A stretch of 64,000 bases of DNA from Nitrosopumilus sp. (GCA_965219345.1 OZ244732.1:1664001-1728000); one strand, 5' to 3'. Shown: positions 51,739-55,696, counted from the first letter of the stretch. Notes: generated by a model not told the origin, from the sequence alone. Numbers and translations: made by a program.

Positions 51739-51844
51739 TTCATTAAAAGTATCTTAAAAAAAGGTTATAAAGCTTACACCAAGAAACTGCCAAAGCCACA
51801 ATTCCTCGACAACTCATTAGTTACTGATTTTCCAAGGAGTTTCT

Positions 51845-52262
51845 ATGATGTCTAGAACACGAAACAATCTCAATGTTATCAAAGACGACAAAGACATTCA
51901 CGGGATTGAAAGAGACATAGAAAATGTTCTCAAAGCTCTAGAAAATGACCTGAATGCTGGAAATTGGGCACTAATTAATAGATATTTCAAGGTCCTAAAT
52001 GCTTCGGGACGGTAGAACAGCGATCAGAAAGACGCTAAGAGAGCTACACAAAGTTGATGAAATCATTAATCACGCAAATTTTGAGACAATGACAAAAGAT
52101 GATGTTGATGATTTCCTCTTTGAGGTTGGATGCAGATATCCAGCCAAAAAGAAAGACTGTTCCTATCACAATACTGTCCAAGACTTTTAGATTTTCATGA
52201 GATGGGTTATCTTAGGAGATAGAAGATTCAAGACAGTTGGGAGTCCTGACATTACAAAACAC
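51845..52262 (+). pseudogene. N-terminal remnant of a tyrosine integrase/recombinase, truncated at the MITE
   Basis: DIHGIERDIE..., FETMTKDDVDDF..., DF*IFMRWVILGDRRFKTVGSP resemble thaumarchaeal integrase N-termini; frameshift and in-frame stop; no catalytic domain. Confidence 0.6.
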
Positions 52263-52570
52263 ATTAGACTTTATGCGTAATCGCACTTGCAAATTTTTTT
52301 TTTTTTTGTGGCGCAGGCCGTGCCAAGCCTGTCTGTACCCGTTGCCCACAGGCCATCCTCAAGTTCCAGCCGCTCGCGGAGAGAGCTGACTGCCTTGCTG
52401 TGCTTGCTGACTTCCCTGTCCTTCTGCCTGATCGTCTTGGCATTCTCTTTGAGCTCCCTTTGCAGCCTTCGTATGGTCTGTTCGGGGGACTCCATTGCAT
52501 GTGGCGGCGATCAAGGCGGATCTAAATCTTTCGAAAAATTTGCAAGTGGCGATTACGCATAAAGTCTAAT
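52263..52570 (-). mobile_element. MITE / internally deleted IS with ~36-bp terminal inverted repeats
   Basis: ATTAGACTTTATGCGTAATCGC-ACTTGCAAATTTTT (52263-52298) versus its reverse complement at 52534-52570 (one indel); GC-rich interior; coiled-coil ORF 52271-52495. Confidence 0.85.
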
Positions 52571-52738
52571 ATTGTAATCTGCTTTTGAATTGAAAAGCGG
52601 GTCAAGATAGATTAGGTCAACTGATTCATCACTAATTTGTTCCCTTAGAATCTTTAGATTGTCACCAAAGAAAAGTAAATTTTTTGCGAACCTCCCCCCC
52701 CCCCCCGCGTTCCCGATTGGGTTAGATGTGGAGATCAT
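52571..52738 (-). pseudogene. 5' stump of an N6/N4 DNA methyltransferase truncated by the MITE
   Basis: NLLFFGDNLKILRE.I.DESVDLIYLDPLFNS..DYNI (motif IV DPPF variant); G13 tract near the start. Confidence 0.8.
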
Positions 52739-52739
52739 C

Positions 52740-52910
52740 TTAGGCAGATCCTATAATTTCTATTTTTTTACCTTTTATTACAAATTCAATGTGATCAGGA
52801 TTATGTAACACTTCTAAAACTTTTGGTGGGATTCTACAAAGTTTACTAAACTTGCTAGTAGTACTTACGGCCACTCTGAAATTTGTCTCATCTTTTTTCC
52901 AACGTGTCAT
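52740..52910 (-). CDS. Small AbrB/MazE-like DNA-binding protein
   Basis: MTRWKKDETNFRVAV...CRIPPKVLEVLHNPDHIEFVIKGKKIEI swapped-hairpin pattern. Confidence 0.65.
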   Translation of the reverse strand: MTRWKKDETNFRVAVSTTSKFSKLCRIPPKVLEVLHNPDHIEFVIKGKKIEIIGSA

Positions 52911-52964
52911 AATGTATTCCAAAACCTTGACTATATTAAGAGTACGTTTACTAGTAATTATTAA

Positions 52965-52980
52965 ATAAGAGTACTCTTAT
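52965..52980. promoter_or_regulatory. Perfect 16-bp palindrome in the divergent promoter region (imperfect copy at ~52937)
   Basis: ATAAGAGTACTCTTAT; TAAGAGTACGTTTA upstream. Confidence 0.55.
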
Positions 52981-53001
52981 CTAAATAACAATGAAGCGAG
53001 T

Positions 53002-53076
53002 AAAAATGAGGGCAATAATGAGCCAACTCTCGTCTGATCAAATGATGATCACGGCATGATCTGAGCCCTCATTTTT
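53002..53076 (+). ncRNA. Archaeal box C/D guide sRNA-like element
   Basis: 12-bp terminal stem; box C ATAATGA 53015-21 (one mismatch), 12-nt guide, D' CTGA 53034-37, C' ATGATGA 53042-48, 12-nt guide, D CTGA 53061-64. Confidence 0.7.
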
Positions 53077-53118
53077 TGATTCTCATTATTCTATTTTAAT
53101 TTTCAAGAGGTCTTACGC

Positions 53119-54266
53119 ATGAACGCAAGACAGCAAAGAGGAAAACAAATAGTTAAAAGACAAGATCAGATTATCAGAATAGATGAGAATCATTACAGGG
53201 TCAATTCACAAAGTAGAGGAAATATCCAGCATGATGTTGTCTCTACCGAGTTTGGATGGTCTTGTTCCTGCGAGGATCGTCTATTTAGAAAGACCTGCTG
53301 CAAGCACATTCATGCAGTAGAGATTTCATTATCAATTAGAAAAGAAGTAGAGAAAATAATCACGGTAGGACAAATTCAAACCGATTGCTGCATACACTGC
53401 AAATCATCTAAAATTAGAAAAAGAGGAATCAGAAAGAACAAGACACATTCGATTCAGTTGTATCAGTGTGGTGATTGTAAAAAATACTTTTCATTTAATC
53501 TTGGCTTTGAAAAGATGCACGCCTCGCCTCAAATAATTGCCAGTGCAATGCAGCTATACTTTACAGGTGAATCCTTAAGATGGGTCCAGAAGTTCCTGAA
53601 ACTTTAGGGTGTCAACATAAGCCATGTTTCTATCTACAAATGGATTAAGAAATACATCAAACTCATGGATGATTATCTAAACACCATAACCCCCCCCCCC
53701 AAGTAGGTGAAAAATGGCACGCAGACGAAGTATGGCTAAAGGTAAAGGGTGCAGAAAATACCTTTTTGCCATGATGGACAACGACACCAGATTTTGGATT
53801 GCCCAAGAGGTCGCAGATTCAAAGTTCAAGCATGATGCTAGAAGCCTGCTAAAGATGGGAAAAACGGTAGCCAAGAAGGTTCCTTCTGTCTTTGTAACTG
53901 ACGGTTTACCAGCTTATAATGATGCCTTCGAGAAGGAATTTGCACCAAAGAACTTTCCTGCACAAGTCAAGCAGGCACGTAAAAGAAGTTCATTTTAGAA
54001 ATCAAGTAGCAAATAACAATATCCAGGAGAGATTGAATGGCGAGTTCAGGGACAGGGAAAAAGTCTTTAGGGGCCTGAAAAAGGATGATAGTCCAGCAAT
54101 TACAGGAATCAAACTGTATCATAACTACACAAGGCCACACATGAGCCTAGACGGTAACACTCCTGCCGATAGAGCTGGAATTGAGATTAAAGGCGATAAC
54201 AAATGGAAGACAATAATCCAAAATGCAAGCCTAACGAAACCAAAGCGTTTAATTTCTACCTTGTAG
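53119..54266 (+). mobile_element. Disrupted IS6-like DDE transposase with N-terminal SWIM finger and zinc ribbon
   Basis: SWIM CSCED....CKHIHAV; CIHC...YQCGDC; WHADE, YLFAMMD..TRFWIA, VTDGL.AY, NN.QERLNG, HNYTRPH; TAG at 53605 and frameshifts at C11 (53690-53700), ~53750 and ~53955. Confidence 0.85.
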
Positions 54267-54374
54267 AAATAACAATGAAAGCCTTTTGACGTTTCCGTCT
54301 TCGTCCATGATTGCCGAATCATGATATAGACGACCCCTGATCAGACGTTACAGTCAGGGGCATTTTTTCTTCAT

Positions 54375-54455
54375 GCCATGATAGTCTAGTGGTAAGACGC
54401 CAGTCTCCTAAACTGGTCATGTAACGTGACGGGGGTTTGATTCCCTCTCATGGCG
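54375..54455 (+). tRNA. tRNA-like gene with CCU (Arg) anticodon and long variable arm
   Basis: Acceptor GCCATGA/TCATGGC plus G73; D arm GTCT-AGTGGTA-AGAC; anticodon arm CCAGT-CTCCTAA-ACTGG; variable arm TCATG-TAA-CGTGA; T arm GGGGG-TTTGATT-CCCTC. Confidence 0.8.
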
Positions 54456-54530
54456 TTTCAGGCGACGGAAGTTAACACGGAGAAGAAAGCTACGATAAGC
54501 TAACAGAATCGAATTAAATAAATAAATACT

Positions 54531-54554
54531 ATGGGTACCCATGGGTACCTATGG
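54531..54554. promoter_or_regulatory. Tandem palindromic operator-like repeats at the antitoxin start
   Basis: ATGGGTACCC-ATGGGTACCT-ATGG; ATGGGTACCCAT is a perfect palindrome. Confidence 0.6.
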
Positions 54555-54784
54555 TAGAAAGTTCAATGTCAGTATCACAGGAATCAAAATTGAAATGGGC
54601 AGCTTTCAAGAATCATCCAAAAGAATCCATGGAGGCTTTGATTAATCGAACTTTCAATTTAGCTTACGTAAATGAAGAACCACTTGATGCAAGAGATATA
54701 TCTGACATTCAGAGATCACTTGCAGATTTTAAAAACGGTAACTTCAAGACTAACGCCCAACTTCTCAAAGAACTAGAAGCTTGA
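54551..54784 (+). CDS. Putative antitoxin (RHH-like N-terminus)
   Basis: K.HPKESME.LI.R and EPL....I.DI.RSL.DFK.G.F.T..QL.KEL; overlaps the toxin start. Confidence 0.7.
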   Translation: MVESSMSVSQESKLKWAAFKNHPKESMEALINRTFNLAYVNEEPLDARDISDIQRSLADFKNGNFKTNAQLLKELEA

Positions 54785-55035
54785 GTTGGATTGCACAGTG
54801 GTCTAACACTGCCAATAAACAACTAAAGAAATTACCAAAAAAAGATCGAAAGAGAATTTTATTAAAGACAGCAGATGTTGAAGAAAATCCTTTTTTGCAT
54901 CTTTCAAAACTATCAGGAGAGCCATTTTTTCGTTTCAGAGTAGGAGATTATAGAATTTTTTGTGATGTAAATAATAAGGAACTGCTAATCATGATTGTCA
55001 AAGTCAAAGGCCGTGGCGGCGCCTACAAGAGATAA
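54781..55035 (+). CDS. RelE/ParE-family toxin
   Basis: A.KQLKKL...RKRI, KL.G..FFRFRVGDYRI, V..R..AY motifs. Confidence 0.9.
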   Translation: MSWIAQWSNTANKQLKKLPKKDRKRILLKTADVEENPFLHLSKLSGEPFFRFRVGDYRIFCDVNNKELLIMIVKVKGRGGAYKR

Positions 55036-55054
55036 CCCGTACTTTTAGAATTAA

Positions 55055-55315
55055 TTATCTGTCCATCTTCTTTTGCAATTTATCTAATCCTTTATCCAAT
55101 TTGACAATTTTTTCTAAATTACTATTATGATTTTTTTCTGTTTCATGTTTTAATTCTTTAATCTGTTTTTCAAGCTCATCTTGTTTTTTGAGTAAACGCA
55201 TAGCAAATCTAGCAACATCCGCATACATTTCAAAATCATCAAGTATTTTCTTTATTACCTGCTTGGTCTTTTCATCCGTCTCTTTAGACATCATGCCTTC
55301 CATAAATGATTTCAT
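55055..55315 (-). CDS. Hypothetical coiled-coil protein
   Basis: 86-aa ORF; start uncertain. Confidence 0.5.
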   Translation of the reverse strand: MKSFMEGMMSKETDEKTKQVIKKILDDFEMYADVARFAMRLLKKQDELEKQIKELKHETEKNHNSNLEKIVKLDKGLDKLQKKMDR

Positions 55316-55381
55316 TTTTATGAAATCCTGTTTCTCCCATCCAGATTAGTGAAAAAATCGGAAACATCCTCTAGGACTATT

Positions 55382-55513
55382 TTATCAATTTTGAACTATG
55401 TTGATATGGATTCAGAAGTGAAAGTCTTGGGATATGGAATTAGTTTGATTTTACTAAATATTGGAATGTATTTTGGAATACCTGCAATTGTTATTATGAG
55501 GATTAGAAAATGA
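55382..55513 (+). pseudogene. Orphan 3' tail of a CFI-box-CTERM-type surface protein
   Basis: LSILNYVDMDSEVKVLGYGISLILLNIGMYFGIPAIVIMRIRK* with no upstream body. Confidence 0.65.
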
Positions 55514-55696
55514 AAGCTTCAGCTCAAATGTACAGTATACCAACTCTTAACTTTGAAAAGTATGTCATTGATGGGATGATGAGTCAAACATTGCAGCATC
55601 AAACTGTTATTGTCTCAACCTTTGTCACTTTTCAGTCAAAAAGTTATAAAGTTTTGTCAGTTTGTTTCATTAATTCTAACAAACATTTTGCATATT

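Follow-up and report, generated by a model that had tools for sequence, protein, structure and literature searches.

We analyzed a 64,000-nucleotide (nt) stretch, one strand of a Nitrosopumilus sp. genome (GCA_965219345.1 OZ244732.1:1664001-1728000), here referred to as the window; the genome comprises 1.91 Mb and has a GC content of about 33%. A first-pass annotation, made from the sequence alone, had singled out positions 52740 to 55035 as a candidate mobile module in which a transposase is bracketed by a box C/D guide RNA and an atypical tRNA and is accompanied by a RelBE toxin-antitoxin pair. All eight features that it listed are present at their places. The segment from about 52553 to 54510 is probably the right-hand part of an IS6-like transposon with cargo, a type common in Nitrosopumilus; this copy is truncated and dead, and both RNA genes lie within the segment.

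The transposase gene occupies positions 53119 to 54266 of the plus strand and was delimited by open reading frames (ORFs), Pfam matches and alignment with paralogues. Relative to an intact paralogue it is split into three pieces by two frameshifts, one of which coincides with a poly-C run (53690-53700), and by an in-frame stop (53605-53607), and its family score in Pfam is weak. The left end of the element is lost as well, and we read the copy as a pseudogene in a dead element, in agreement with the decay already suspected at first pass. A tblastn search with the intact 377-amino-acid (aa) paralogue detected 26 transposase loci in the same genome, at 33-77% identity. The intact paralogues score 97-121 bits against the NCBIfam IS6 model NF033587, the best of them (120-121 bits) just under the cut-off of 125, and 50-54 bits against Pfam DDE_Tnp_IS240 (cut-off of 27; 2e-14), and they show a weak SWIM match and a zinc ribbon of the IS1/IS1595 type. 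By these domain matches, the transposase is an IS6-like DDE enzyme with a SWIM-like finger, a zinc ribbon and a helix-turn-helix (HTH). The family is present in 53 of the 121 genomes sampled from the genus and occurs also in Nitrosotalea, Bathyarchaeia, Methanoperedens and others.

Upstream of the pseudogene lies a box C/D small RNA (sRNA) gene (53002-53076, plus strand), composed of a closing stem, box C, a 12-nt D' guide, box D', box C', a 12-nt D guide and box D. The closing stem spans 12 base pairs (bp), box C has one mismatch to the consensus, and the fold has a z score of -2.97. The Rfam families snoPyro_CD (30.8 bits; E value of 5e-4; gathering threshold of 45) and sR14 (27.5 bits; threshold of 38) match the gene below their gathering thresholds, and about a dozen archaeal C/D families of Rfam, which are lineage-specific, stack on it and nowhere else in 1.7 kb; at gathering level, only tRNA was found by Rfam in the window. 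When five compact copies of this RNA were aligned, the boxes and the stem proved invariant and the guides differed; compensatory changes were also noted in the stem. A covariance model built from these five copies (R1), the window copy among them, gives the window RNA 84.3 bits as a training member. In the same genome R1 has three strong matches, all linked to transposase and all training members, and across the genus it yields matches of at least 45 bits in 12 genomes. A fibrillarin gene is encoded in the genome.

Downstream of the pseudogene, ARAGORN and Rfam identified a class-II tRNA-like gene (54375-54455, plus strand) with the anticodon CCU, discriminator G and a serine-type D loop. It reaches 62.3 bits against the Rfam tRNA model (threshold of 29), whose alignment shows a 7-bp acceptor stem and a 5-bp T stem, and it carries an 11-nt insertion in the variable region. 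The gene is followed by a right terminal inverted repeat (54460-54510), recognized by the terminal-repeat pattern of the family and by its resemblance to the ends of other copies. The first-pass annotation had seen no IS6-type terminal inverted repeats; a family-type repeat is thus present on the right, and the left one is missing. The tip of the window repeat is GA, and those of paralogues and relatives are GG. Its position places the tRNA-like gene inside the element and, therefore, the antitoxin/RelE pair outside it.

RNA genes recur at a fixed place in other copies of the element. Eight copies in the same genome have an intact N terminus; four of these carry a C/D RNA upstream of the transposase gene (one of them degenerate, with variant D boxes), two carry a tRNA-like gene with the anticodon CAG, and two carry neither. 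The distance from the end of the RNA to the start codon is 55 nt for the C/D RNAs, except for about 45 nt in the degenerate copy, and 49 nt for the tRNA-like genes, the overall range being 40-55 nt. Each RNA is preceded by a TATA-like stretch flanked by repeats that differ between elements, and every RNA-bearing copy, whether with a C/D RNA or a tRNA, has a T-run and an AT-rich segment about 27 nt before the start codon. We also sampled 80 full-length copies from 29 other genomes of the genus and found the same module in 16 loci from six genomes, namely, 12 C/D-like modules (four by a box-and-stem pattern and eight by eye) and four tRNA-like ones (three by ARAGORN and one by Rfam at 41 bits). 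The window and four other elements have a tRNA-like gene in a second slot, which lies between the transposase gene and the right repeat.

Several of these elements have well-defined boundaries. Two copies in genome G052, 99.96% identical over 2560 bp, have inverted repeats of about 55 bp, one of them is flanked by an 8-bp duplication, and both enclose a C/D RNA. An element of 3332 bp in genome G132 has perfect 31-bp repeats and an 8-bp duplication and contains a tRNA-like gene with the anticodon UAU; four further tRNA-bearing elements are bounded by inverted repeats. Because near-identical copies with 8-bp duplications enclose the RNAs, these move with the element, and because many active-looking relatives lack them, they are dispensable for transposition. 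The comparison of copies thus shows the C/D RNA and the CCU tRNA-like gene to be integral, optional passengers that travel with the transposon. In a FastTree phylogeny of 84 transposases, which omitted the window copy and copies shorter than 300 aa and was read without regard to support values, C/D-bearing, tRNA-bearing and RNA-less elements are interleaved, and the module seems to have been gained, lost or swapped often. The first-pass proposal of a transposon family carrying translation-related RNAs is borne out by this recurrence in a fixed slot inside inverted repeats, in six of the eight copies of the same genome and in 16 of the 80 from relatives.

Outside Nitrosopumilus, ARAGORN and the box pattern revealed no clear RNA module in 80 cross-archaeal loci. 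The promoter-like motif was detected in two of the 79 such loci with enough upstream sequence, and one of the two was a true instance. Inspection by eye of 20 cross-archaeal upstream regions recovered two Nitrosopumilus loci with a C/D RNA and two others with unclear tRNA-like pieces that failed Rfam.

Across the family, the ends are GG-tipped inverted repeats of 20-60 bp, and pairs of near-identical copies define units of 1505, 2560, 2829 and 4027 bp. Target duplications of 8 bp flank three elements of relatives and are absent from several others. Two identical 1505-bp copies in genome G131 (L188 and L189) lie in opposite orientation, each with the other's flanking 8-mers; as far as the flanks tell, this exchange is the signature of an inversion by replicative intramolecular transposition.

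On the left, the window element retains remnants of a protein-coding part. A fragment of 61 aa on the minus strand (52553-52738) corresponds to the N terminus of a DNA methyltransferase (PHROG phrog_67, 9.2e-7) and appears to be what is left of the transposon's cargo; larger paralogous elements have full-length ORFs at this position, which we read by eye, from conserved motifs and not from family scores, as methyltransferase or restriction-modification genes. The remnant ends where a GC-rich repeat (52263-52579) sits, and it is there that the left part of the transposon is cut off. Next to it lies a small regulator-like ORF of 60 aa on the minus strand (52740-52922; likely start at 52910), with about 35 homologues at the same relative place in the loci fetched, always divergent from the transposase gene. 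The first-pass annotation had called this gene AbrB-like. The ORF has no Pfam match, a profile search against PDB gave an E value of about 1, and hhalign placed the alignment of its homologues only weakly (E value of 0.027) beside its positional analogue. This analogue, the regulator at the same position of a paralogous element, matches PF04014 at 27.2 bits (cut-off of 24.7), and one distant member of the small-ORF alignment reaches 19.5 bits against the same family. The small regulator is thus possibly AbrB/MazE-like.

Between the regulator and the C/D RNA, two copies of a 14-nt motif (repeat family D14; 52937-52950 and 52966-52979, the second palindromic) surround a TATA-like stretch, and we infer that 52937-52979 is a candidate operator and promoter driving the C/D RNA. 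The paralogous elements L009-L014 and L018 each have a short motif of their own, in two or three copies around a TATA-like stretch, between the regulator and the RNA or transposase gene; such element-specific motifs suggest regulator-operator pairs that diverged element by element. On the other side of the C/D RNA, the T-run and the AT-rich promoter-like segment conserved among RNA-bearing elements (53077-53118, plus strand; about 27 nt before the transposase start) may constitute a second promoter, serving a leaderless transposase gene. Two hairpins follow the pseudogene (54301-54361, plus strand; minimum free energy of -23.8 kcal/mol, z score of -4.22), the second of which is terminator-like, with a T-run after it. 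In L009, a copy at about 212 kb of the same genome, two small ORFs (54 and 78 aa; no family) lie 3' of the transposase gene instead of a tRNA-like gene, and a degenerate right-end-like sequence, read by eye, may come after them.

Intact elements begin with a GG-tipped left repeat, followed by a methyltransferase or restriction-modification gene and the small regulator, both on the same strand. Next come a divergent promoter, whose repeats are specific to the element, the RNA module, which is optional, and the transposase gene. A second slot, likewise optional and occupied by a tRNA-like gene or small ORFs, precedes the right inverted repeat. The RNA module itself consists of a box C/D sRNA or a class-II tRNA-like gene, a T-run and the second promoter-like segment. 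Such a module would set the RNA behind a regulator-controlled promoter and give the transposase a promoter of its own.

The tRNA-like gene of the window does not resemble tRNA-Arg, although ARAGORN reads it as Arg with the anticodon CCT: it has a long variable arm and is not conserved as a host isoacceptor. Its nearest relative is the host tRNA-Ser (CGA), at 67% identity. Only three of the 121 genomes gave a match to the CCU gene (E value of at most 1e-4), and one of the two other matches is the tRNA-Ser (CGA) of the genome concerned. Nine atypical tRNAs were found by ARAGORN in the same genome, with the anticodons CCU (two), UCU, GAU (two), UAU (two) and CAG (two). All have a long variable arm, discriminator G, AU-rich acceptor stems and a short D loop as in the host tRNA-Ser, and eight of them pass the Rfam threshold at 43-62 bits; over the same genome and the relatives, tRNA-like genes score 41-62 bits. 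All nine adjoin a transposase or inverted-repeat remnants, and five lie less than 200 nt from a transposase locus; by comparison, one of the 43 canonical tRNAs lies within 1 kb of such a locus, as does 3.8% of the genome.

Serine identity rests on the variable arm and G73, with the anticodon ignored, and G73 blocks leucyl-tRNA synthetase in Haloferax (PMC9976931, as excerpted). Both tRNA-Ser-type features, the long variable arm and discriminator G73, are present here, and because of this the tRNA-like RNAs would, under the rules given in that source, be charged with serine and not with the amino acid of the anticodon. The codon usage of the transposase genes differs modestly from that of the host ORFs (ATC, 38% versus 19%; CTG, 14% versus 10%; AGG, 19% versus 15%), a mild shift towards codons read by the tRNA-like genes. 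Phage and plasmid tRNAs normally have the body of their own isoacceptor family; the likeness lies in a mobile element bringing its own decoders, and the difference is that the vehicle here is an insertion sequence. Closer in kind are the bacterial allo-tRNAs, which combine serine features with non-serine anticodons, UAU being prominent, and for which a link to transposons and toxin-antitoxin systems has been suspected (Mukai et al. 2017, as summarized in excerpts of PMC7609411). According to the same excerpts, the allo-tRNAs are bacterial and have 8/4 or 9/3 acceptor/T arms, an arrangement that the window gene does not show; the genes described here are archaeal, have 7/5 arms (read by eye) and lie inside a transposon.

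In some pairs of elements, the sequence of the RNA module is conserved beyond that of its neighborhood. Both guides are identical (12 of 12 positions) in elements L128 and L138, whose C/D RNAs are nearly identical throughout although their transposase genes share 70.3% identity, and the tRNA-like genes of L013 and L018 agree at 86 of 87 positions in elements that are 77% identical. In these pairs the module is far better conserved than the adjacent transposase, which points to selection or to a recent exchange of modules. Three other element pairs keep a 10- to 11-nt core of the D guide; neither guide of the window copy is kept in its closest paralogue (75.3%).

We searched the guides against the 16S and 23S rRNAs and the 43 canonical tRNAs of the window's genome. 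Five of 13 unique D guides form at least 10 contiguous Watson-Crick pairs with 16S rRNA, 23S rRNA, tRNA-Cys or tRNA-Asp, which amounts to four distinct targets; shuffled D guides gave a mean of 0.22 matches, and none of 2000 shuffle sets reached four. Under the N+5 rule, the predicted methylation sites are the second A of the conserved peptidyl-transferase segment of 23S rRNA, a U in the conserved 3'-terminal segment of 16S rRNA, position 37 of tRNA-Cys and position 36 of tRNA-Asp. We take the two rRNA sites to be A2451 and U1498 in Escherichia coli numbering. For the window RNA, the best guide match is to 16S rRNA, with 10 Watson-Crick pairs and one G:U pair of 12, a result that was at least equalled in 2 of 50 and in 8 of 100 shuffles; no target was found for its D' guide.

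The same C/D family also occurs apart from the transposons. In relatives (L198, L200-L202 and L206), canonical box C/D sRNA genes form tandem arrays of 2-11 units with a period of about 130-260 nt (G119:C1:276034-276929 and 451035-451775; G131:C1:483760-484549; G082:C2:119853-123220; G070:C1:262816-263096 and 1964520-1964784; G123:C1:2142827-2143619). The arrayed genes have the same closing stem as the transposon-borne copies and varied guides, some of which recur in the latter. No IS6-like transposase lies within 1.5 kb of these arrays; a G119 array is flanked by a DDE_3 transposase and a gene with a nuclease domain. Furthermore, a weak match of the C/D model (30 bits) lies outside the window at G000:C1:1193385-1193469, and most genomes of the genus contain one counterpart, at 27-32 bits. 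In contrast to the accessory, transposon-borne RNAs, this match is probably a conserved C/D sRNA of the host chromosome.

A number of observations weigh against our interpretation of the element and its RNAs. The R1 model recognizes the compact type only, at two of the 80 relatives' loci, both training members, and Rfam in E-value mode gives weak C/D matches at two of 10 non-compact C/D-like loci, so that 10 of the 16 modules counted in relatives rest on boxes and stems read by eye. A blastn-short search with the right end found no left inverted repeat of the window element, and neither the left end nor a target duplication of this copy can be demonstrated. One CCU gene of the same genome, at about 1,235 kb, falls under the Rfam threshold; the tRNA-like genes resemble the host tRNA-Ser moderately (54-75%), and for some of them tRNA-Leu is just as close. 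As for the guides, the stable RNAs of the window's genome served as stand-ins for those of relatives, none of the 15 D' guides has a target in stable RNAs, and the window's own guides have no convincing target, that is, none with at least 10 contiguous pairs, in 16S rRNA, 23S rRNA, tRNAs or the genome. Ordinary guides, moreover, do not usually point to catalytic or anticodon nucleotides, where the predicted methylation sites lie.

With these points in view, we consider it most likely that the RNAs are a trans-acting, translation-related cargo. The C/D RNAs are predicted to load the host proteins L7Ae, Nop5 and fibrillarin and would then guide 2'-O-methylation of rRNA and tRNA, and the tRNA-like genes would provide additional decoders, predicted from their body to carry serine. 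A bolder form of this interpretation, which we hold to be unlikely, sees in the RNAs a translation-reprogramming kit that joins serine-identity tRNAs for Arg (AGG/AGA), Ile (AUA/AUC) and Leu (CUG/UUA) codons with guides directed at catalytic and decoding nucleotides, and that serves as a device of addiction, competition or anti-defense. Were it true, the tRNAs would be an archaeal, canonically shaped counterpart of allo-tRNAs engaged in programmed missense decoding, their expression would come from a promoter under a transposon-encoded repressor, and the C/D arrays would be expanded guide libraries.

The RNAs might instead act in cis, as stable, protein-bound structures that, together with a terminator behind the regulator-controlled promoter, insulate or tune transposase expression, for instance through binding of L7Ae to a kink-turn or through processing by RNase P or RNase Z; guides and anticodons would then be incidental. 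The fixed position speaks for such a role, the RNA ending 40-55 nt before the start codon and always being followed by the T-run and the promoter-like segment, as do the interchangeability of C/D RNAs and tRNAs in one slot, interleaved as they are on the transposase tree, and the fact that the same promoter abuts the start codon in RNA-less relatives; L7Ae is, in addition, described as a regulator of mRNAs through kink-turns (PMC5539422, as excerpted). A purely structural role, however, predicts neither the conservation of guides across diverged elements nor the enrichment of D guides for rRNA and tRNA, and it does not account for the C/D genes in tandem arrays that have no IS6-like transposase within 1.5 kb or for tRNA-like genes located downstream of the transposase. 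We judge a cis role, which the first-pass annotation had considered as regulation of the element itself, to be rather unlikely. It is quite unlikely that the RNAs are selfish or decaying hitch-hikers, a proliferating C/D cassette and tRNA-derived pseudogenes that landed in a permissive spot of the transposon. The common closing stem of the C/D family, its arrays and many contexts, the many orphan guides, the AU-rich acceptor stems of the tRNA-like genes and the one copy below the Rfam threshold would all suit this explanation, which has a precedent in the MITE-like sRNA element (MITE, miniature inverted-repeat transposable element) of Pyrobaculum (described in the excerpted part of PMC6009581). 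Decay is nevertheless hard to reconcile with conserved guides, with D guides enriched for targets, with full cloverleaves kept at 41-62 bits and with the near identity of the L013 and L018 tRNA-like genes.

The first-pass annotation had also raised the possibility that the element uses its RNAs for targeting. The guides or the tRNA would then pair with the donor or target DNA, much as IS110 bridge RNAs and IS605 omega RNAs do. In favor of this, the RNA gene and the transposase gene are indeed neighbors within the element, the C/D RNA offers two segments that can be programmed, and IS110 recombinases have been proposed to be evolutionarily linked to Nop5 (PMC11213020, in the excerpt considered). 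When 10 guides were compared with their own elements, one D' guide had a 10-nt match, downstream of its own transposase gene (reached in 3 of 200 shuffles), and the other nine had no match above chance; one low-complexity guide matched its own element trivially. Against targeting stand, further, the near-identical copies (99.96%) that carry identical guides in unrelated flanks, the lack of RNA in most family members, multi-copy ones included, and the nature of the enzyme, an IS6-like DDE transposase whose 8-bp duplications show no apparent site specificity. On account of the identical guides in unrelated flanks and the lack of systematic complementarity between guides and their own elements, we rejected RNA-guided targeting, which we regard as very improbable. 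The probability is smaller still, practically negligible, that an ordinary host C/D gene and a host tRNA came to flank an insertion sequence by chance in an insertion hotspot. Several mobile remnants do make the region a mosaic island, but the tRNA lacks conservation across the genus, and relatives have nothing of the segment at the syntenic site. Above all, a scan of homologous transposases for flanking RNAs, as suggested at first pass, recovered C/D RNAs and tRNA-like genes in the same arrangement in paralogues and in six other genomes, inside inverted repeats, and this recurrence refutes chance juxtaposition.

A mobile element that carries translation-related RNAs as cargo differs from the systems nearest to it. 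In IS110 and IS200/IS605 elements the bridge RNA or omega RNA is required and specifies donor or target. The likeness consists in a structured noncoding RNA beside the transposase inside the element; the RNA described here is, by contrast, optional, and identical guides are found at unrelated sites (compared with the excerpted part of PMC11213020). The Pyrobaculum calidifontis MITE-like C/D element (Lui et al. 2018, PMC6009581) is similar in that a C/D sRNA-like sequence multiplies by a transposon-like route and has many orphan guides. As portrayed in the excerpts of that paper, however, it is nonautonomous and has inverted repeats of its own, whereas here the C/D RNA lies inside an autonomous DDE transposon, in a slot that may hold a tRNA-like gene instead. 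With IS6/IS26 elements (PMC7986276, in part) the family shares an IS6-like DDE core, GG-tipped inverted repeats and 8-bp target duplications, and replicative intramolecular events are suggested by the swapped flanks of the two G131 copies. The excerpted part of that review gives typical sizes of 700-890 bp and repeats of 15-20 bp and lists only one member with a passenger gene. Instead of the compact single-gene layout of about 0.8 kb, the elements studied here span 1.5-4.6 kb, with repeats of 20-60 bp, protein cargo and RNA genes, and their transposase has an additional SWIM-like finger and zinc ribbon.

The literature searched yielded no report of insertion sequences with C/D sRNAs or tRNA genes as passengers, and none of C/D sRNAs in Nitrosopumilus; the supplementary tables of PMC6563490 may list these elements as insertion sequences, and the part of its text considered describes thaumarchaeal insertion sequences as one- or two-gene elements and leaves RNA cargo unmentioned. 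What appears to be new is an insertion sequence whose passengers are translation RNAs in a dedicated slot, the nearest in print being the Pyrobaculum element and the bacterial allo-tRNAs. Insertion sequences are usually thought to carry protein-coding passengers at most, and a modular slot for noncoding RNAs of translation would be a direct route for the horizontal spread and rapid turnover of C/D guides and tRNA variants. Through a concrete mechanism, it could also account for the mobility that has long been noted for archaeal C/D sRNA genes, and it would provide natural candidates for missense-decoding tRNAs in archaea. For ammonia-oxidizing archaea, for which the literature searched holds no C/D sRNA catalogue, a set of guides with predicted targets is now available. 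Mobile elements would edit their host's ribosome if the sites predicted in the peptidyl-transferase and decoding centers are indeed modified.

The transposon remnant is part of a larger insertion. A 17-bp imperfect direct repeat (repeat family D5; 15 of 17 positions identical, spacing of 3879) occurs at 51759-51775 and at 55638-55654, the right copy being evident also from the junction in relatives. In most relatives, the sequence at about 51775 of the window is joined directly to that at about 55638, the two matches overlapping by 17 nt. Because the 17 nt are single in relatives and doubled in the window, the 3.9 kb at 51776-55654 can be described as an island between 17-bp direct repeats that is missing from the relatives' syntenic site. 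Contigs from four runs of one study contain the island, and no joint that skips it was seen among them. In these assemblies, the length of two poly-C runs, at 52696-52710 in the methyltransferase remnant and at 53690-53700 in the transposase gene, varies by 1-2 bases, which could be homopolymer error or genuine length variation.

Besides the truncated transposon and the toxin-antitoxin pair, the island contains two ORF fragments, a GC-rich repeat, another small ORF and a repeat of about 130 nt. The two short ORF fragments lie in different frames on the plus strand (51845-52190) and match no Pfam or PHROG family; a guess that they are the remnant of an integrase was dropped for this reason, and searches of the island proteins against Pfam and PHROGs did not confirm an integrase. 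The GC-rich repeat at 52263-52579 is a multi-copy, MITE-like sequence of about 315 bp with inverted ends and a GC content of 0.47-0.50, recognized by self-matches; copies 93-98% identical occur at three further sites of the genome, and the summed contig depth is several-fold higher over it. The island's 17-bp repeats and its methyltransferase and toxin-antitoxin genes recall the integrated mobile elements with short attachment (att) sites reported from Thaumarchaeota, for which 17 bp is the median att length (Krupovic et al. 2019, PMC6563490, in the part considered); the difference is that no integrase was confirmed in the window island.

The antitoxin/RelE pair, which the first-pass annotation had counted as a part of the module, lies beyond the right inverted repeat and belongs to the island. 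The toxin (54781-55035, plus strand; 84 aa) is of the RelE/ParE type, with 39.9 bits against Pfam PF05016 (cut-off of 23) and a match to the RelE-like PHROG at 5.5e-20. The candidate antitoxin (54551-54784, plus strand; 77 aa), recognized by its position and its 4-nt overlap with the toxin gene, matched no family in Pfam, NCBIfam or PHROGs. The two genes have the layout of a type II toxin-antitoxin system, a RelE/ParE-fold toxin following a small overlapping ORF, and a tandem 9-nt repeat with an internal 6-nt palindrome, read by eye directly before the antitoxin start (54531-54549), is a candidate operator. Judged by its position, the pair is a separate passenger of the surrounding island. Two repeats of other kinds were noted nearby. 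The repeat of about 130 nt at 55376-55515 is found at several sites of the same genome, and many genomes of the genus have it at 78-87% identity; and, as a by-product of a pattern search, a CRISPR (clustered regularly interspaced short palindromic repeats)-like array of more than 150 units with a period of about 73 nt came to light about 10 kb before the window (G000:C1:1641735-1653813).

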